Shown here: one piece after another, positions 2,768 through 55,470 of the stretch | How the letters are laid out: the number at the start of each line of letters is the position of its first letter | How positions within the stretch are numbered: position 1 is the first letter of the stretch | The notes under the pieces: generated by a model | The model's database searches: none | What the model was told of the DNA's origin: nothing | Seen by the model: only the letters and a program-made list of their open reading frames with translations | From: Escherichia phage inny | Strand: one strand, 5' to 3' | DNA: 64,000 bases | Sequence record: MN850601.1 | Made by a program: the position numbers and the translations under genes

Positions 2768-5347
2768 CTAGTGACAAGACGCCCATGAGTTACCAACATC
2801 GTAACCAGCAGTGAGAGGTACATTAAGATTGTAATACTCACCAGCTTTATTAACAGCGATAGATGCTAATTCTCCAGCACGACTGTAGGCTGTAAACCAA
2901 CCACCTTTCGGAGATTCATGTACGTTAGCCCAAATCTTGCCAGTACGTTTCTCTTCCTCTTCTTTCCAGGCATTAACCTTATCCAAACATTCTTTATCAA
3001 TTTTCTTTTGTTCTTCTGGATCATCAACTTGAGTCCAACCTAAAGATTCTTTAGAAAACCATTTAAAATGCACCAGATCACGAGTTACTTCAAGCTGTGC
3101 TTCATCGTGATATGCAATCATTTGTTGAACGAATGACTTATTTTTCCAGTCATCAACAAAAAAGTCAACAGCTAATCCTTCTTCTTCGATAAGATCGTCG
3201 TAGATAACCATTGCTCTTTTTGCACAAATAACACCACCACTCTGGAACAGAGAGTTAAGTATTGCGTGTGCAGATCGTGTAGGTACTTTTCTACCATCAA
3301 TACCAAGAATGTATTTCTTACCTGTTTTAACCCAAAAATCATGCAGACGTTCTTTAAGAAGCGCAAGAGGTTTTGCAGCTTCCCAGAAAGCATCGTATAC
3401 AAGTTGTCCTGTATACATATCACTACCTATAGTTTTTGCTACTTTTGCAGCTTGAGCACCATAAGTAATACCATACTTAACAGATTTAGCAGGGCTTCGT
3501 TCAAACTTACGACCAATAGTGTCAGAAATACGTCGAGCCATCATTGTATGAACATCATTAGGTTTTTCCAATAATAGAGCATTACAATATTCGTGTGGTT
3601 CCTGCTCGTACCGCCAACAGTAGTGTGATTCTATTTTTGCCTCAAGAGAATCAAAGTCATAACCAATTTGGAAGTATTTTGGAACTTCTACACCAAATAA
3701 GTTACGCATTTCATATCCGTACAGAGATGTTACACGTGGGATATTTGCTACTAACCTATGTTTCATACGAGACGTAGCTGCATCACACGTTGCAGCAGGG
3801 GTTGGTATACGACCATCAGCCCTTACTGCCGCCAGATAACCTTTATCGTAATCCTCTTCATCTTCTTCCCAATCAGCACCACCACCTAGGATAGAGTTTC
3901 TACGATGTTTATACGTAAGATATTGCACAATCTGCGTAGCATAAGGAAACTTTTCACCCAGTGCTTCCAAGTTAGGACAAATATCTTTCTCTTGCCCTTT
4001 TGTAAAGGAAGGGTTAGTAAGCACTTTAACACCACGACCTTTAGCTTTAGCAATACGATCTCTTAGTTTCCATTCCAAAGTTTCTGGTGTGCACTCCAGA
4101 TGATCACATCTGTCCTGGCAGAAGTTAGATGCTAATGTTTGATCAACATAGTCACGAATAGCTTTCTCCATTTGTGCTTCATCTTTCTTAATCTTAGTGC
4201 CAGATTTAAGAGTGATATCTTTATCTTTATATTCAGATGGACTCCAACCTAAACCAACTAACCAGTTTTTAATATGTGTAGTGTCGTCTAAAGTAGCAGG
4301 TACTGTAGGATCACAAATAGGTTCTTCTGCTGGAATAGGGAGTTTAAACTCTTTACCTAATGCAAATAGCCACCAACCATCTTCTTTTTGTACAAGTTCA
4401 CCAGAATGTTTCTCTGCAAACTTTATCATGTTACTTGAAGGTTCACCATTCTTTTTAAACTGTAGTTTAGGTGGAATGAATGATTTCAAATAACCTTTAG
4501 TAGCAGGTTTAGGAGGTAACACAGGTTCTGCCTCTAAACGACATGCTTCCATTCGAGCATCCAGATCACGAATATTATCTTCTGCTTGTTTCATATTGAA
4601 AGCAAAGCCACGGTGCTCTTGACGTGTAATAATATCAGCTACACGTTGTTCTAAGTTAAAGGGTTCAGACCATTTATTATAATCACCCCACTCTTCCATC
4701 AAATAACGGAATACTGCGGTGTTAGCTTTGTTATCGTAAATACAGTAATACAGCATATCTGCTGCAAATGTTTTAAATCTTTCAGTTTCAGGAATGTTTT
4801 TTCTAAAATCAATTTTAACATCCCCTCCAGCTTTCTTAGATAACTCTGCCAGACTATGACCACCGAAGCGATCAGGGTTTAGTGTCTTACTTAAGATCAT
4901 AGTATCACAAATTTCAATGTTACTATTACCCCAAGTATTGTACTTAATACTGTAGTTGAGTTTAAAAAATAATTTAATTGCCAGTAAGTCAAAGTTAATG
5001 ATGTTATGTCCAACTACTTTGGTAATTTTATAGTTTGAATTACCTTTAAATTTACCTGTTCCATTTACAAAATCAGGAAAATCTTTAAGAGGGAAATGGG
5101 TATATTCTAAATGCTCATATTCCTCCAGTCGGTATTCATACTTTCCGTCAGTCTCAACATACGGACGACCATCGAAAAGATATTTATCACCATCATGGAA
5201 AGCAATAATCTCTCCAGTATCATGACTTTCGCACACAATACAGTGCATTGCAAAACTATCTTTTAAACGATATGGACTTGCCAAGTAATCTACACTTTCG
5301 TCATTAAGCAAGTTGTTACTTTCAATGTCGAAAGTAAAAGCTCCCAT
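2768..5347 (-). CDS. DNA polymerase, family A, with 3'-5' exonuclease domain
   Basis: 859 aa; exo motif FTFDIESNN at N-terminus; motif A-like GYDFDSLEAK, motif B RSPAKSVKYGITYG, motif C AYHDEAQ. Confidence 0.9.
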   Translation of the reverse strand: MGAFTFDIESNNLLNDESVDYLASPYRLKDSFAMHCIVCESHDTGEIIAFHDGDKYLFDGRPYVETDGKYEYRLEEYEHLEYTHFPLKDFPDFVNGTGKFKGNSNYKITKVVGHNIINFDLLAIKLFFKLNYSIKYNTWGNSNIEICDTMILSKTLNPDRFGGHSLAELSKKAGGDVKIDFRKNIPETERFKTFAADMLYYCIYDNKANTAVFRYLMEEWGDYNKWSEPFNLEQRVADIITRQEHRGFAFNMKQAEDNIRDLDARMEACRLEAEPVLPPKPATKGYLKSFIPPKLQFKKNGEPSSNMIKFAEKHSGELVQKEDGWWLFALGKEFKLPIPAEEPICDPTVPATLDDTTHIKNWLVGLGWSPSEYKDKDITLKSGTKIKKDEAQMEKAIRDYVDQTLASNFCQDRCDHLECTPETLEWKLRDRIAKAKGRGVKVLTNPSFTKGQEKDICPNLEALGEKFPYATQIVQYLTYKHRRNSILGGGADWEEDEEDYDKGYLAAVRADGRIPTPAATCDAATSRMKHRLVANIPRVTSLYGYEMRNLFGVEVPKYFQIGYDFDSLEAKIESHYCWRYEQEPHEYCNALLLEKPNDVHTMMARRISDTIGRKFERSPAKSVKYGITYGAQAAKVAKTIGSDMYTGQLVYDAFWEAAKPLALLKERLHDFWVKTGKKYILGIDGRKVPTRSAHAILNSLFQSGGVICAKRAMVIYDDLIEEEGLAVDFFVDDWKNKSFVQQMIAYHDEAQLEVTRDLVHFKWFSKESLGWTQVDDPEEQKKIDKECLDKVNAWKEEEEKRTGKIWANVHESPKGGWFTAYSRAGELASIAVNKAGEYYNLNVPLTAGYDVGNSWASCH

Positions 5348-39535: not shown

Positions 39536-40663
39536 ATGAAATACACGATTTATGGTGATATTGTAAGTGTAAATAAAGATATGGGCGTGGAATCTAACTA
39601 TCTTCCACCTGGATTCTATACTGTTAGTCGTGATCCCCTTGGCAATTACTTTTTAAGCCGTGGTAATCTAACAGGTGTACCGGATGTTCTGTATGGTGAA
39701 ACAGAAAAACGAGCAAATCACGTTATTCGTACATTCCATCGCCGGAGTGCACAAGGTAAAAACACAGGTTTGCTCCTGACAGGCACTAAGGGCAGTGGTA
39801 AAACTATGTTAGCCAAACTCATTAGTCGTGACCTTGTAGAAGAAGGTATTCCAACTATTATGGTTACTCAAGCCTACAGCGATGCTAATTTCATTGAACT
39901 TATTAGCAAGATCACCGACAAAGCAGTGATTATTTTTGACGAGTTTGATAAAGTATATGAGAAGAAACAAGATCAAGAAGCACTTCTCACTTTGTTAGAT
40001 GGTACTGGCAGTGGTAATAAACTGTTTATTCTAACTAAAAACAGTGGCTTTATCTCTGAATTCTTTCTAAATCGTCCTAGTCGTGTGTTTTATAATTTTA
40101 ATTATGATAAAATCTCACTAGAAACTATGATTGACTATTTAGATAAAAACCTGGATAACAAAGCACACTTTGATAATTTCCAAAGGCTTTGGGATGTAAG
40201 TTTAGAGTTGTCCTTTGATGTGATCCAAGGTATAGTAGAAGAACTTAATTTCTACCCTGATTTATCCTTTAAAGAATGCATCTCTATGATGGGCGTTTCT
40301 TTGGGTGGTGGTAATAAGTGGGATATCAGCAGCGTTGTTATTAATGGGAAACTTCAGAAAGTTAGCTGGGTATCTAGTTGGCATAACTTCACACCTGCAA
40401 TCTTTTTAGGTGGCTCGTGCACACTAGACGTGTACTTGTCATCTCCAAGTGATGCAGACTCTAAAGAAGCCCTTGCTAATAGCTCTTACGTGGTTTTTGA
40501 TGATGAAGGAGATGCTCGAATTCCATTGAATGCGACAAAAATGAAAGCAGATCTTATTACAGGCGGTAAAATCGTTGTGTTTAGTGATGATCCAGAAGAT
40601 TCTTTCCGTATTGTTCTGGAACCAACTATCACCAATGGTGCAACTTTGGCAAGCGTGTTTTAA
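39536..40663 (+). CDS. AAA+ ATPase (classic AAA clade), paralog of 22830..23990
   Basis: 375 aa; Walker A GTKGSGKT, Walker B IIFDEFDK, LLTLLDG, FLNRPSRVFYNF. Confidence 0.75.
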   Translation: MKYTIYGDIVSVNKDMGVESNYLPPGFYTVSRDPLGNYFLSRGNLTGVPDVLYGETEKRANHVIRTFHRRSAQGKNTGLLLTGTKGSGKTMLAKLISRDLVEEGIPTIMVTQAYSDANFIELISKITDKAVIIFDEFDKVYEKKQDQEALLTLLDGTGSGNKLFILTKNSGFISEFFLNRPSRVFYNFNYDKISLETMIDYLDKNLDNKAHFDNFQRLWDVSLELSFDVIQGIVEELNFYPDLSFKECISMMGVSLGGGNKWDISSVVINGKLQKVSWVSSWHNFTPAIFLGGSCTLDVYLSSPSDADSKEALANSSYVVFDDEGDARIPLNATKMKADLITGGKIVVFSDDPEDSFRIVLEPTITNGATLASVF

Positions 40664-40737: not shown

Positions 40738-41910
40738 ATGACAGCACCAAAATCATGGGAACAATATAAAGAAGAATTAACACCCCTTGCTAAAAATCGC
40801 AATATTCAAATCCGGGGTTATGTTGGTGAATGGAAAGGGAACAAGACTAAACTTAAGCTATCTTGCCCTAAACATGGAGAGTGGAACACCACGAACATTA
40901 ATGATTTTAAGAAGGGACGTGGTTGTCCTATCTGTTCTGGTAAGAAGCCGTTAACATGGGAAACAGAATTGCCGATCTTGGAAGAGATAGCACAGAAGAG
41001 GGGGTATCAGGTGTTAGGGTACGTGGGAGAATGGAAAGGGAATAAAACAAAACTTGATTTGTTGTGTCATTGTGGTAATAAATGGGATACTACAAGTATT
41101 AACAATTTTAAACGTGGTAGCGGTTGTCCACAATGTAAGAGGGAGAGACAAACAATGTCCGACGATCAACATATTGCAGATTTCTTTTCTACAGGGGAAT
41201 TTAAGGAAGGCACTATCTTCACCAATACAGGGAAACGTAACAAGCGTGATGCAGTATGGATGGTTGAGTGTCCTGTTTGCTCCCATGATGAATATGTTCA
41301 AGCAGGTGTTTGTGATGGTAAATTTTACTCTGCAGGACATAACCTTAAACAAGGGTATATTCCGTGTCGTTGTGGGAACTATCAGTATACAGAAGACCAG
41401 ATCACCTATAGGGTAAAAAAGGAAGTAGAAGGGAAAGGGTATGTCTGGGTAGATTGGATTACCAAACCCTCTTCTATAGGTAAGTTTAAATATCTTTGTC
41501 TTGTGCATGGTGAGCAGATAGGGAGTGCTCGTAATTTATTAAGCCTCGGTCAAGGTTGTCCACAGTGTGCTGGTCATAATCAACAGCAATTATATATTAA
41601 TATTGTTAAAGATAATGATATTATAGTTGCTCTTAAGTTTGGTATATCTAAAGATAGCGATAGACGATTAAACGGTCAAAATAGCCGTAATCTGTTTTTT
41701 ATGGAGCGTATTTGTTTATATGATTTTAGCACAGTGAAACAATGTAGGGCTGCTGAAAGAGCTATAAAGAAAAAATTAAAAACTGGTATTTTAACGGCAA
41801 GAGAGTTGAAAGATGGTTATACAGAAACAGTAAGTGTTTCTGATTTGGAAAATCTTCAAAAAATTATTACACAATATGGTGGCAAATTAGTATACAGTAA
41901 GGAGATGTAA
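40738..41910 (+). CDS. multi-zinc-ribbon repeat protein (possible nucleic-acid-binding/nuclease)
   Basis: 390 aa; four repeats of GYVGEWKGNKTKL...W.TT.IN.FK.G.GCP.C type; CxxC pairs. Confidence 0.55.
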   Translation: MTAPKSWEQYKEELTPLAKNRNIQIRGYVGEWKGNKTKLKLSCPKHGEWNTTNINDFKKGRGCPICSGKKPLTWETELPILEEIAQKRGYQVLGYVGEWKGNKTKLDLLCHCGNKWDTTSINNFKRGSGCPQCKRERQTMSDDQHIADFFSTGEFKEGTIFTNTGKRNKRDAVWMVECPVCSHDEYVQAGVCDGKFYSAGHNLKQGYIPCRCGNYQYTEDQITYRVKKEVEGKGYVWVDWITKPSSIGKFKYLCLVHGEQIGSARNLLSLGQGCPQCAGHNQQQLYINIVKDNDIIVALKFGISKDSDRRLNGQNSRNLFFMERICLYDFSTVKQCRAAERAIKKKLKTGILTARELKDGYTETVSVSDLENLQKIITQYGGKLVYSKEM

Positions 41911-42462
41911 ATGCGGATTACTGATAAGTATGTGTTCTTCTTCTCGGCAAAAGATGAATTTAGCAACTGGTATCTATCATCTTTTATTGAACCTTTAGCT
42001 CCCAAGTATAATAATTCTATTACAAGTTCTGTTGAATTTACTTGTGTGGAACAATATATGATGTGGAGAAAAGCATGTTTGTTTTATGATTACAACATTG
42101 CATCTTCTATTTTAACCGGAGATCTAAGATATACAGGAGAAAAAGAACAGGCATATTATAAGCGACTAGGTAGATTAGTTAAAGATTACGATGAAGCTAC
42201 TTGGACTTCTTTACGGGAGAAGATTGTCAAGCGTGGTTTGTATCTTAAATACACACAAAATGAAGATCTCAAAAATAAACTTATCGCTTACGCAGATAAG
42301 GAGTTCGTAGAGGCAAGCCCTTATGATTCTATTTATGGTATCAAAATGGGAATGTGGGATCGTGATGTGGAAAATAAGGACTGTTGGAAAGGACAAAATC
42401 TTTTAGGAAAATGGCATACAGACCTTGCTGTTTATCTAAAAGCACAATCTGATATTTCCTGA
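41911..42462 (+). CDS. NADAR (YbiA-like, DUF1768) domain protein
   Basis: 183 aa; FFFSAKDEFSNWY, FTCVEQYMMWRKA, EASPYDSIYGIKMG, WKGQNLLGKW align with YbiA as recalled. Confidence 0.7.
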   Translation: MRITDKYVFFFSAKDEFSNWYLSSFIEPLAPKYNNSITSSVEFTCVEQYMMWRKACLFYDYNIASSILTGDLRYTGEKEQAYYKRLGRLVKDYDEATWTSLREKIVKRGLYLKYTQNEDLKNKLIAYADKEFVEASPYDSIYGIKMGMWDRDVENKDCWKGQNLLGKWHTDLAVYLKAQSDIS

Positions 42463-42678
42463 TATTTTGAAAATTTTTATTTTTATAAAAAGGGGTGTGG
42501 GTTTCATGTACGGAAATCCACCCTCTGAATAATATATCCAGAGTAAATATTATTCTGTACTCTGTTAATAAAGTATTTAATTTGTTTGTTTGACTATGGT
42601 ATCTGATCTTTAAAAGACATACTATCTCTTAACTACTACTTATAACAGAACAGTAAAATCATTTTTATAAAAAGTACA

Positions 42679-42885
42679 AAATTATTTAAAGTTTTTACAG
42701 ATTTTTGGGTACAAATTTTGAAAATGAAAAGTTCAAGTTTGGTCAAAATTATTTAAAGTTTTTGTACGTATTTCTGTCCAGATTTTGAAAATGAAAACTT
42801 CAATTTTTTAAAAATTCCCCAGTTTATTTAAAGTTTTTTTGCCTTTTTCCGTAGAAAAATCAAAAATGAAAAGTTCAATTTCGTG
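42679..42885. repeat. three tandem copies of a ~66-bp unit (ATTTAAAGTTTTT ... TTTGAAAATGAAAAGTTCAA)
   Basis: Direct repeats seen at about 42679, 42746, 42811. Confidence 0.7.
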
Positions 42886-42899
42886 TTTTTATAGGTGTG

Positions 42900-43015
42900 T
42901 TAATGAGAATCATTTTCGTTTGTAAATGAGAATCATTATCATTTAACTATGTAAGTGATAATCATTCTCAGTAAGAGAATGAGAATCATTAGCAAATGAG
43001 AATTTTCTCATTTAG
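42900..43015. promoter_or_regulatory. cluster of five ATGAGAATCATT-type palindromic boxes (Fur-box-like)
   Basis: atgagaatcatt x2, gtgataatcattctca, aatgagaatcatt, aatgagaattttctcatt; ATGAGAATCATTATC matches 14/15 of the Fur consensus core. Confidence 0.45.
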
Positions 43016-43244
43016 AGAATAACGCGCAGGGGCGGTGTTTGTCTCGCGCTCCCGTGTCCCCTCGCCATACAATAAGAATAGCATAACCAACAACAAAAGC
43101 AAGCGATTATTTTTATCTTTACATTTCTTTACAAATTTATTTTAGACGAGCTACCGGCGATCAACCTTCCAACCAGTGCCCCCTGGTATGTTAGCCCCGC
43201 CTTTACGCCGTGGGGGTGGCGTTTCCTCTTCTGTATGTAAAACA

Positions 43245-43272
43245 GTATAAGCCCGATCCCTGGGCTTGTCAA
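43245..43272 (-). promoter_or_regulatory. orphan sigma70-like promoter (TTGACA-N17-TATACT) reading leftward into GC-rich non-coding DNA
   Basis: Reverse complement of tgtcaa...agtata; no ORF with plausible start downstream. Confidence 0.35.
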
Positions 43273-43274
43273 GA

Positions 43275-43541
43275 TTATTTTTTGTTTTCTTGCCAGGATA
43301 GGACACCTAACCAAAAATACATGTCGCCCCGCGCCCCTGGCGGGATCTTGCTTTCCCCGCCGCCACTACAAGCCCATAGATAACCATTAGCGAACGGATC
43401 AAAATGATCTATTTCTTCCACCTTATGATCGCCCAGGTTGAGAACGGTTTCAACCTTTAAGCCCGTTGCGCTTGCTACCTGGTGCACCGTGCCGCCTTGC
43501 CAGCCTAATGAGTGCATGAGGTGTAGAGTAGTATTTGTCAT
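43275..43541 (-). CDS. hypothetical protein
   Basis: 88 aa; led on minus strand by hairpin + CATCAAAGAAAGGG RBS like the rightward cassettes. Confidence 0.5.
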   Translation of the reverse strand: MTNTTLHLMHSLGWQGGTVHQVASATGLKVETVLNLGDHKVEEIDHFDPFANGYLWACSGGGESKIPPGARGDMYFWLGVLSWQENKK

Positions 43542-43914: not shown

Positions 43915-43970
43915 TTGACAACGTTTTTTAATCTGATAAGATGTATCACATAGGGCGGCAATAGTGCCGC
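43915..43970 (+). promoter_or_regulatory. early promoter + 5' stem-loop cassette
   Basis: TTGACA-N16-TAAGAT, then CATAGG + hairpin GCGGCA-ATAG-TGCCGC. Confidence 0.55.
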
Positions 43971-43994
43971 TCATAACAGAAGAGAGAAATAATC

Positions 43995-53705: not shown

Positions 53706-53719
53706 ATAACATTTCACAC

Positions 53720-53748
53720 CAGGGCGCACAAAGCGCCCTTTCTTTTTA
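53720..53748 (+). terminator. rho-independent terminator
   Basis: GGGCGC-ACAAA-GCGCCCTTTCTTTTT. Confidence 0.55.
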
Positions 53749-53951
53749 CCTAAAGAAAGATGATAGCTTTTACCTATCAAAAACGTTCACCGAAAAAAGT
53801 GAATAGATCGCGGTATCGAGCTAATCAAGGAGCAGATGAACAACCATACCATGAAGATCATAAGGCGCTTACAACGTGTTTTAGACCGCTTATTTTTAAT
53901 TTCTTCATGCAACTATCTGGCAAAAACAGCCTTTTTCTTGTCTTTCCCCTT

Positions 53952-54025
53952 AAATGATAATCATTCTTATCTATAGCTGATTATTTATGCAATAAATTGC
54001 ATAATGCAATAATGATAATCATTCC
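53952..54025. promoter_or_regulatory. two Fur-box-like palindromes
   Basis: AAATGATAATCATTCTTATC and ATAATGATAATCATTC against consensus GATAATGATAATCATTATC. Confidence 0.45.
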
Positions 54026-54319
54026 TAACTTAAGACCATCTAACCTATAAAATAATAAGTTATCTAACTAAATTAAAACTAATTATCTCACTTTTATTTA
54101 TAACTTACTGTTACTATCTCATTGATAACATTGTATTAAACAACAATAACTAATATAAATCATTACTAAGCTAAATATAATCTATCTAACCCTTAAAACT
54201 ACAATTATAATCTATCGAATTGTTGCACAAAGTAACTATTAAATTGTTAGTAACATTACTAAATAATTCACATCCTATCTATTTATGATCTAATCTTTAC
54301 CTTCCTATCTATTACTTAG

Positions 54320-54371
54320 ATAATCATTTCATACAGTAACCATTTCATGTAGTAATCATTCCATACAATAA
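54320..54371. repeat. three tandem ~17-bp iteron-like repeats
   Basis: taatcatttcatacagtaac / catttcatgtagtaat / cattccatacaataac. Confidence 0.6.
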
Positions 54372-54503
54372 CTATAACAAGAAATATAATTCGCAAGCGT
54401 ATCATTAGCAGCCTATGCCGGACACATAGGCGGCTAATAATAACGCAACTACACACCCCACATAATAACCATCACCGATAGTCATTATTTGTGCTTATGT
54501 AGC

Positions 54504-54563
54504 TTGCAACAACTGCAAGCGCAACAATATACAATTGTATATTGTATCCCTTACATTGTTGCG
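54504..54563. repeat. nested inverted repeats around a perfect 20-bp palindrome
   Basis: TTGCA-ACAAC-TGCAA; GCAACAAT ... ATTGTTGC flanking CAATATACAATTGTATATTG. Confidence 0.6.
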
Positions 54564-54892
54564 GTGCGTTATTATTAGCTAATGTTTAGAACATTGGCTA
54601 TAATATAAGCTAAATAATAAGCTATACAATAATAAACATCGTGAATAATGATGCTGATGATCATAATGCGCCACCTTCCAGGGGGCGCTATGTGAACACA
54701 AAGAAATCTTTCTTGTCAAGAAAAATATTAACACTATTGCGCAAAATTATTTATATATGAATAGATGGTTTTTCATACTATTGTTATTATTTATCGGGCA
54801 TAGTTATAGCCTATTTGTTGAGCCTACTCTTTTAAAAGCGCAATAAAGTAGAATTATCTTGATTTTTAGTCGGTTTTATAGTACAGAAAGTA

Positions 54893-54915
54893 TGCAAATG
54901 ATAATCATTATCAAC
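54893..54915. promoter_or_regulatory. near-consensus Fur-box-like palindrome
   Basis: AAATGATAATCATTATC matches 16/17 of Fur consensus TAATGATAATCATTATC. Confidence 0.5.
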
Positions 54916-55078
54916 TATCTTCCACGGGTGGCACTATTTCACGCCAGATCATTTCATTTGGCAAGGTGTATATAGATGTTTAGACTTGCCAAGCCATTGA
55001 TTTACTTAGAATTTATCTGTTTTGTTGTGAGTAGTACCTTTCTTGCTCAGAAAATAATCAAAAGTCTTATAAGTCATT

Positions 55079-55110
55079 GAATGATAATGCAAATGATAAT
55101 TATTCTCATT
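55079..55110. promoter_or_regulatory. tandem Fur-box-like half-sites
   Basis: GAATGATAATGCAAATGATAATTATTCTCATT. Confidence 0.4.
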
Positions 55111-55229
55111 GATATTTGAGGGGGACGGTCGGCAGAAATCGGGGGGGCGCTGAAAATCGCGTTAAGCACCTCTCGCAAGCGAGCAGTGTTTTGCGGCAAG
55201 TTATTGATATTATTGACTTTACGCTTATG

Positions 55230-55342
55230 AAAAGGGGGTGTGTCGAAATAAATCGGGTATACCGGAAAATTTTTGTGGCATAGATATTTATTTGTCTATA
55301 TTATGTACAAAGGGGTGTGTTAAAAATAATAGGTATATATAG
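55230..55342 (+). promoter_or_regulatory. two copies of conserved motif AAAGGGG(G)TGTGT-N11-12-GGTATA upstream of rightward late-type block
   Basis: aaagggggtgtgtcgaaataaatcgggtata and aaaggggtgtgttaaaaataataggtatata; partial third copy near 42489. Confidence 0.35.
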
Positions 55343-55470
55343 AATAATTGATAGGGAAATCCTATACTAATCCCTCCATTAATGATGTTCCTAGATTACT
55401 GTTCTTGTAATAGATGAAAAGACGCTGTATAATGTGTGGCATGAAACGTAAACTTATAAAGGAGTCTGAT

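Follow-up and report, generated by a model that had tools for sequence, protein, structure and literature searches.

The locus considered here raises a simple question: what are three tandem repeats in a gene-free part of a phage genome for, and do they act as DNA, as RNA or as a set of promoters? The stretch analysed, called the window throughout, comprises 64,000 nucleotides of Escherichia phage inny (MN850601.1), a phi92-like phage (genus Justusliebigvirus, subfamily Stephanstirmvirinae) with 97-99% identity to such phages over 1.2 kb of the region; phages Antha and outra are the closest matches to the region. Some GenBank records label the repeats of the array 'repeat_region', and the rV5 paper marks a 'non-coding' box without comment. 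No functional description of the array was found in the literature searched, and as far as can be told it is uncharacterised. Nor did the literature searched describe the replication origin, the early control region or the mode of DNA entry of the rV5-, phAPEC8- and phi92-like phages, although such phages turn up in many isolations and are frequent candidates for therapeutic use.

The array and its surroundings

The initial annotation reported three tandem repeats of ~66 bp downstream of the NADAR gene. Three tandem units do lie there (Table 1), but their spacing is not ~66 bp: the direct units start near 42677, 42744 and 42819, at spacings of 67 and 75 bp. Tandem Repeats Finder, which had been proposed as a check, confirmed the repeat while reporting two of the three units (42677-42807, period 67, 2.0 copies, 82% matches, score 185), the third being missed because the spacing there is 75. 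A repeat-family search returned three copies, at 42661, 42728 and 42803, again with spacings of 67 and 75 and with 72% identity. Box A, TATTTAAAGTTTTT, occurs exactly three times in the 64-kb window, once in each unit, and box B, AAAATGAAAAGTTCAA, follows at 42721, 42788 (with its one mismatch) and 42863, an offset from box A of 38 bp in all three units. Any other match to box A in the window needs two mismatches and is at the level of chance (4.4 expected). Beyond such chance-level matches with two to three mismatches, neither box was found elsewhere in the 64-kb window, and neither was found away from the array in the complete 147-kb BME3 genome.

Table 1. Coordinates of the array units and of the elements on either side of them, in window positions
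Feature	Position	Strand	Remarks
NADAR-domain gene	41911-42462		Upstream neighbour of the array; Pfam E 2.3e-36
Left edge, CTGATATTTC x1.9 (TGATATTT(C/G) repeats)	42449-42467	+	Tandem Repeats Finder
GC-rich hairpin with U-run, CCCCUUUUUAUAAAAA	42491-42527	-	Minus strand only; direct sequence reading
Unit 1	42677-42743	+	Box A 42683-42696, T-tract spacer, box B 42720-42736
Unit 2	42744-42818	+	Box A 42750-42763; box B 42787-42803 with 1 mismatch
Unit 3	42819-42885	+	Box A 42825-42838; box B 42862-42878
About five palindromes of type TAAATGAGAATCATTATCATTT	42898-43010	.	Mismatched at 3-5 of the 19 positions of the E. coli Fur consensus
Ultra-conserved GC-rich block	43020-43245	.	
P2, sigma-70-like promoter zone	43075-43134	-	Just downstream of TGTAAAG repeats; faces palindromes and array
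P1, TTGACA-17-TATACT	43244-43272	-	11/12 match
88-aa protein gene, phrog_19316	43275-43541	-	Own predicted promoter

The array is 77-80% AT and, at 79.5%, is the second AT-richest 200-bp stretch of the window. In a rough wedge model of intrinsic curvature, bend peaks follow each box A and the strongest predicted bend among the units is in unit 3; as the peaks are no more than moderate, curvature is not weighed here as strong evidence. No conserved open reading frame was found in the array, and the short ones annotated in some records are without conservation among relatives, so that a coding function was rejected. A search of 5,426 E. coli genomes gave no match and a search of plasmids nothing meaningful, which rules out that the array was copied from the host or from plasmids. 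When viral contigs were scanned, the two-box pattern was swamped by chance matches from AT-rich viruses, and the three-box pattern was found in two contigs only, both from the phi92-like phage group.

The array lies in a gene-free stretch that extends from the stop of the NADAR gene to the small minus-strand gene of the 88-aa protein and is flanked by converging transcription units; genes in the window run leftward to ~38 kb and rightward beyond. It is the core of a gene-free, cis-acting module of ~0.8 kb, in which the array is followed by Fur-box-like palindromes and then by an ultra-conserved GC-rich block with minus-strand sigma-70-like promoters. The cluster of Fur-like boxes noted beside the array in the initial annotation is confirmed in this position and adjoins the array directly. 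At the left edge of the non-coding region the short repeats begin, in the window, within the final codons of the NADAR reading frame, and GATATTTG-type repeats open the homologous region in Tr1, FKP3, CR3, Mydo and SSE121, where the upstream genes differ. A spacer of ~150 bp separates the array from a hairpin (42527-42491) that is likely, from its stem and U-run, to be an intrinsic terminator for leftward transcripts that have passed the array. This hairpin was present in both folds and is retained in Tr1 with compensatory changes; a simple terminator scan did not flag it.

The GC-rich block stands in a phage of 37% GC and contains no open reading frame. Two sequences within it are invariant in eight lineages, CTTTACA-N3-CTTTACAAA (43117-43135) and TACCGGCGAT (43152-43161), and the part from 43116 to 43241 is 80-88% identical between Stephanstirmvirinae and Vequintavirinae, far above the expectation from protein divergence. 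It holds a hairpin, ACCAG...CTGGT, with some compensatory changes; its alifold consensus is weak and strand-ambiguous, its single-sequence fold is no better than that of shuffles, and neither an Rfam nor a tRNA match was found at the block. In the window the P2 zone consists of TTGTAA-17-AATAAT (43134-43106) and TTGCTT-16-TATTCT (43102-43075). A P2-equivalent promoter matching at 9/12 positions is present in six of eight lineages, while the window and phAPEC8 have a weaker one together with a 9/12 site 22 nt upstream; as consensus matches, minus-strand promoters at the P2 position are therefore found in some form in all eight. P1 overlaps a terminator-like hairpin of the 88-aa gene, and its TTGACA is retained in Tr1, FKP3 and the Klebsiella phage.

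Among the genes to the left, an endonuclease gene (40738-41910, with CapR and T5orf172 domains) lies between those for an ATPase and the NADAR protein. It looks like a mobile homing-endonuclease insertion, because Klebsiella phage phi1_175008 has a 342-nt gene alone at that position. The AAA+ ATPase (39536-40663) is variously annotated as an FtsH-like protease, an ATPase or a DnaC-like protein. Its predicted model (pLDDT 87) has a classic-clade AAA core with beta-rich N- and C-terminal domains and is closest to BCS1 and Trip13; the protein is not initiator-like.

Conservation in two subfamilies

Comparison of copy number in related genomes, which had also been suggested as a check, showed conservation of the array and no departure from three units. 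It occupies the same place in five lineages of the Stephanstirmvirinae, being found behind the NADAR gene not only in the phi92-like phages but also in Citrobacter phage Tr1, in Klebsiella phages phi1_175008 and FKP3/KP13-26 and in the phAPEC8-like phages. These other lineages are ~65-71% identical to the window at the locus and their box-A spacings are 67/76, 67/75 and 66/75 bp; in phAPEC8, where the middle unit is degenerate, the first and third units are 138 bp apart. Spacers between the boxes have diverged among lineages, with ~28 bp free to vary. The consensus from a register alignment of all units is TTATTTAAA(G/C)TTTT, a phased T-tract and AAAAynrAAAttTaAA. Unit 2 of the window terminates in TTTTTTAAAAATTCCCCAG, and this junction before unit 3 is retained in other genera. 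The retention of such junction features shows that unit 1 of one genus is the ortholog of unit 1 in another, and likewise for units 2 and 3; the triplication is hence old and the copy number fixed. Among eight Justusliebigvirus genomes, variation was seen at none of 93 box positions, compared with 26 of 214 in the left spacer and 6 of 116 in the rest of the array.

An inverted repeat, TTGAA...TTCAA, had been attributed to each unit. It is intact in units 1 and 2, but unit 3 reads ATCAA...TTCAA, and it does not hold as a general feature of the units, being specific to the phi92 group and missing from the homologous units of other genera. Most genera have a second TTTAAAGTTT-like copy that ends box B, at a distance of 46 bp from box A. 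Phages of the phi92 group have TTCAAGTTT in its place, and it is this replacement that creates the inverted repeat.

Three phages of the Vequintavirinae, CR3, Mydo and SSE121, have a counterpart that was found via the GC block and not via the NADAR gene. No array was found beside the NADAR gene of the Vequintavirinae, which is in a different context there, and the NADAR proteins of the two subfamilies are 37-45% identical. Directly beside the same palindromes (one to four of the same type before the GC block) and the GC block itself, these phages carry three tandem units of different sequence, unannotated in their records, at spacings of 78/63 bp in CR3, 74/67 bp in Mydo and 75/67 bp in SSE121. 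The arrays are like that of the window in having three units, the same position and the same module layout, and their two spacings, each between 63 and 78 bp, add up to 141-142 bp. They are unlike it in unit sequence, which follows GGGTTCTCGATCG...CGTATT...GAAAAAATTTTT, in being GATC-rich (4-6 GATC sites each) and not AT-rich (51-67% AT), and in the order of the long and short spacings, which is swapped. Their box is a palindrome, TCTCGATCGAGA, unrelated to box A. Both subfamilies thus keep three units, a first-to-third distance of 138-143 bp, an array length of 204-217 bp and the position in the module. What appears to be the recognition sequence has been replaced between the subfamilies while the number of units, their span and their position have been kept, and this is the outcome that co-evolution with a phage-encoded binding protein would predict.

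A probable binding array and the alternatives

The array is real and strongly constrained, and in kind it belongs with the repeat arrays of control or origin-like regions in phages: a single-copy element of fixed number and geometry, with constrained boxes, placed between promoter-like sites and a terminator-like hairpin. It is almost certainly a working DNA site. We estimate a probability of roughly 0.7 that it is a DNA-level assembly site for a protein that is sequence-specific, lineage-specific and probably phage-encoded. The argument for this is the combination of a unique locus, a fixed geometry, invariant boxes with free spacers, and the exchange of the box with the architecture retained; that the binder would be specific to a lineage is what makes a phage gene its probable source. 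Of the kinds of binding array raised in the initial annotation, one for a replication protein is the best supported, given that the element is single-copy and non-coding, that its number and geometry are fixed and that its boxes are invariant within the genus. The suggestion of a partition-protein array found no support, nor did a partition centromere of the sopC/parS kind: the phages are lytic, no Par-like family (ParA or ParB included) was found among the scanned neighbour genes, and there was no match in plasmids.

The most likely role of the array, although we would put the chance well below even, is that of a transcription-activated replication origin. A lineage-specific protein encoded by the phage would bind the three phased bipartite units, each made up of box A, T-tract spacer and box B, and transcription by the RNA polymerase of the host would begin at P2 and P1, the conserved minus-strand promoters of the GC block. 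The leftward transcript would cross the palindromes and the array and end at the terminator (42527-42491), which would stop it before antisense entry into the NADAR operon, and its passage across the array would open or prime the region. Binding of the protein, firing of the promoters and a start of replication here are steps that we infer from sequence features, the promoters and the terminator being predicted from matches to consensus and from conservation among relatives. Of the specific roles considered, an origin fits best: the region is gene-free between converging units, its conserved promoters serve no coding purpose apart from reading into it, and a dedicated terminator is placed behind it. 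Clustered direct repeats of a site at one non-coding locus, as expected of an origin, are present as three units at one locus, in DNA that is AT-rich and moderately bent in the Stephanstirmvirinae and dense in GATC in the Vequintavirinae.

Known phage origins offer partial parallels, among them the iterons of lambda ori, the promoter and unwinding element of T4 oriF and oriG, and the ori of lactococcal phage c2 with its non-coding early transcript. The array resembles iteron-type and transcription-activated origins in having single-copy, non-coding direct repeats in bent, AT-rich DNA, a promoter whose non-coding transcript would read into the repeats, and a repeat sequence that is lineage-specific, as if co-evolving with a phage protein. 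It differs from the iteron type in its exactly three bipartite units of 67-75 bp, much longer than the 12-22 bp iterons of classical origins, and in the lack of an adjacent initiator gene and of DnaA or IHF sites. No cognate initiator gene could be identified next to the repeats, neither a consensus DnaA box (TTWTNCACA) nor an IHF site (WATCAANNNNTTR) was found in the five Stephanstirmvirinae modules, and the main replisome genes are >30 kb from the array. The 51-67% AT of the Vequintavirinae arrays also speaks against an unwinding element kept in both subfamilies. On account of the length of the units and the unconserved AT-richness, an origin is proposed here tentatively.

The same promoters and terminator could instead belong to a non-coding RNA unit, with a transcript of ~0.55-0.75 kb from P2 or P1 in which a hairpin at the 5' end would be followed by the hairpins of the palindromes, the three AU-rich repeats and the terminator. 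Through its repeats this RNA would act on an RNA-binding protein of host or phage, by binding or titrating it, and one possible role would be that of a decoy against defence, as with the pseudo-ToxI repeats of phiTE. Conserved minus-strand promoters do lie upstream of the array and a minus-strand terminator downstream, leftward transcription from P1 and P2 serves no gene, and phiTE, a related rV5-like phage, provides a precedent for a repeat-based RNA decoy (PMC3475682) in which tandem repeats in a non-coding stretch likewise have a promoter before and a terminator after them. We nevertheless consider it unlikely, since the ToxI and pseudo-ToxI repeats are 36 nt long, near-identical, variable in number and at another locus, whereas the array has a fixed three units of 67-75 nt with no conserved fold, only 72% alike and with free spacers, quite unlike homogenised antitoxin repeats, and its copy number never varies among the genomes compared. 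Pseudo-ToxI lies at 106.7 kb in phiTE and the module at 39.7 kb, and it was therefore dismissed as a homologue of the array; repeats of the type III antitoxin kind were dismissed for the unit length and divergence, the lack of conserved structure and the fact that no minus-strand gene follows. Single-sequence folds of the two strands gave z-scores of -1.45 and -1.78, not significant against shuffles, and the minus-strand alifold consensus is just -2.45 kcal/mol (the plus strand was folded as a single sequence only), which led us to reject a conserved RNA structure. Rfam and tRNA scans gave no match at the array, so that a known RNA family was rejected as well, and spacing kept within 1-2 bp across subfamilies fits a DNA geometry better than an unstructured RNA. 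It is also rather improbable that the array is an operator or boundary, at which a phage regulator on the three units would act on transcription passing between the early block at the right end and the operons of the interior, whether by blocking, by insulating or by timing it; the shut-off of leftward early transcripts would be one example. Bipartite sites at fixed spacing would suit a DNA-binding regulator, leftward and rightward transcription units converge at the array, a divergent promoter hub is beside it, and the module includes the small, highly conserved gene for the 88-aa protein. However, every predicted promoter is upstream of the array and none is overlapped by it, a terminator is already in place behind it, and three units kept at a span of 141-143 bp over such evolutionary depth exceed the needs of a simple roadblock. 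The 88-aa protein is itself not an obvious binder because its most conserved segment is unchanged between the subfamilies though box A differs; its predicted fold found no match among known DNA-binding folds. The proposal in the initial annotation that the units are reiterated promoters, each serving a host or phage-modified RNA polymerase, is very improbable. Three tandem strong promoters at the left end of T7 provide a precedent. Read on the minus strand, box A is CTTTAAATAA, loosely like the late promoters of the T4 type (TATAAATA) and the rV5 late motif TggTAaAAtA (PMC3606486). Against this, a search of 42463-43100 for sigma-70 sites (-35 and -10 hexamers 16-18 bp apart) found minus-strand sites outside the array only, leaving the array itself without one on either strand; there is no gene downstream in either direction, and promoter searches by the annotators of phAPEC8 put none at the array. 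Since a genome of 147 kb has the motif nowhere but in the array, it does not represent a class of promoters, and a general promoter or regulatory motif was rejected on the same ground; in the Vequintavirinae, moreover, the box has been replaced by the unrelated palindrome.

A protein-binding array therefore remains our preferred reading. The comparison defines a compact cis-acting module that both subfamilies have in common and that is built around three units of fixed geometry. Origin mapping, protein pull-downs and engineering can now be aimed at this module. It may equally be regarded as a region not to be disrupted, or as a possible handle for plasmid-based propagation.

Genome ends and DNA entry

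The window spans the physical ends of the genome. The GenBank record of phi92 annotates direct terminal repeats of 343 bp at both ends, and since the first base of phi92 corresponds to window position 54821, the terminal repeat maps to 54821-55163, inside a non-coding stretch of 1.7 kb (53706-55413). The ends of the BME3 record (PP239276) agree with this, and the BME3 paper gives a repeat of 342 bp by PhageTerm (PMC12210895). The array is 11.6 kb from the right genome end in phi92 and 12.3 kb in the window, or ~8% of the genome, and the ~25 small genes between are of unknown function, the first few having their own predicted sigma-70 promoters. Palindromes of the type beside the array, TAAATGAGAATCATT(A/C)TCATTT, occur also at 53950-54026, 54894-54912 and 55083-55113, with 2-5 mismatches to the 19-position Fur consensus over all sites; in the full phi92-like genome they are confined to the array flank and the terminal non-coding region. 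The one at 54894 (two mismatches) coincides precisely with the border that the BME3 annotation gives to the terminal repeat. Six palindromes of the same type are present in a non-coding region of the T5-like phage T5_ev219 (2655-3175 of the compared segment), and that a host factor, perhaps Fur, is common to two unrelated phage families through these sites is a testable idea.

These positions bring to mind a T5-like DNA-entry checkpoint, or a site for handling DNA near the end, at which a right-hand early block of ~12 kb would enter first and the DNA would pause at the module until early proteins were made. In T5 the first-step DNA is 7.9% of the genome (bioRxiv 10.1101/866236), close to the distance of the array from the right end. 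The palindromes shared with T5_ev219 lie in the non-coding region after the last terminal-repeat gene, which is the position of T5 Repeat Region 3, a candidate injection-stop signal containing two 66-bp direct repeats (bioRxiv 10.1101/866236). Both this region and the module are sizeable untranslated stretches that have been conserved, lie at ~8% of the genome from one end, border small early genes and have direct repeats of ~66 bp beside TAAATGAGAATCATTCTCATTT-type palindromes; the restriction of these palindromes, apart from the array flank, to the surroundings of the terminal repeat points the same way. A weak further link is the daunorubicin sensitivity common to Vequintavirinae and T5-like phages (PMC13250531). 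We still judge a checkpoint or end-handling site to be quite unlikely. The repeat sequences of the array and of T5 are without similarity, there are no paired DnaA boxes here, the terminal repeat is 343 bp as against 10 kb, repeats and palindromes follow each other in the opposite order when read from the nearest end, and the early genes are transcribed toward the end and not inward. No protein like T5 A1 or A2 was seen among the ten largest open reading frames of the block, although this is a weak test, and two-step injection, known in T5, has not been reported for these myoviruses. The module-bearing phages phiTE and PVP-SE1 are reported to be circularly permuted, and if this is true the module would have no fixed distance from an end. 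As a separate observation, the left neighbours of the module are retained in phages WPEC1 (segment 3470-6228) and WPEC6, with genomes of 155-161 kb, but to its right a minus-strand block with histidyl-tRNA-synthetase-like and methyltransferase genes replaces the early genes, so it is not always beside terminal early genes. The fuller proposal, that the module would be a two-step entry checkpoint in phi92-like and rV5-like myoviruses, with early proteins or P1/P2 transcription releasing the stall and the palindromes serving as a host-factor site, possibly for Fur, that two unrelated phage families use to the same end, is slightly more doubtful again. Whatever its role, the palindrome type shared with the T5 injection-stop region makes the function of the T5 repeats testable in a second system.

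Several smaller observations concern the terminal region and the early genes. In the BME3 record the feature called 'DTR-L' is displaced by 72 bp relative to the repeat implied by phi92 and by the record's own ends, and the record is redundant, its first 343 bp being equal to its last 343 bp and another ~750 bp being present twice. The non-coding stretch 53706-55413 contains the AT-richest part of the window (54046-54245, 80.5% AT) and many short degenerate repeats, such as a 16-mer repeated 3.2 times at 54321-54372. At least the first early genes open with a strong sigma-70 promoter, directly behind which stands a conserved GC hairpin, GGGCGGCAATAGTGCCGCTC (43915-43975); the observation also takes in the gaps of ~90 bp between small genes from 44 to 53 kb, and positions 3747-3766, 4386-4405 and 5275-5294 of the compared segment L008. 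The annotators of phAPEC8 listed it as a PHIRE 'promoter', but it is more likely to be a 5' stem-loop of early transcripts.
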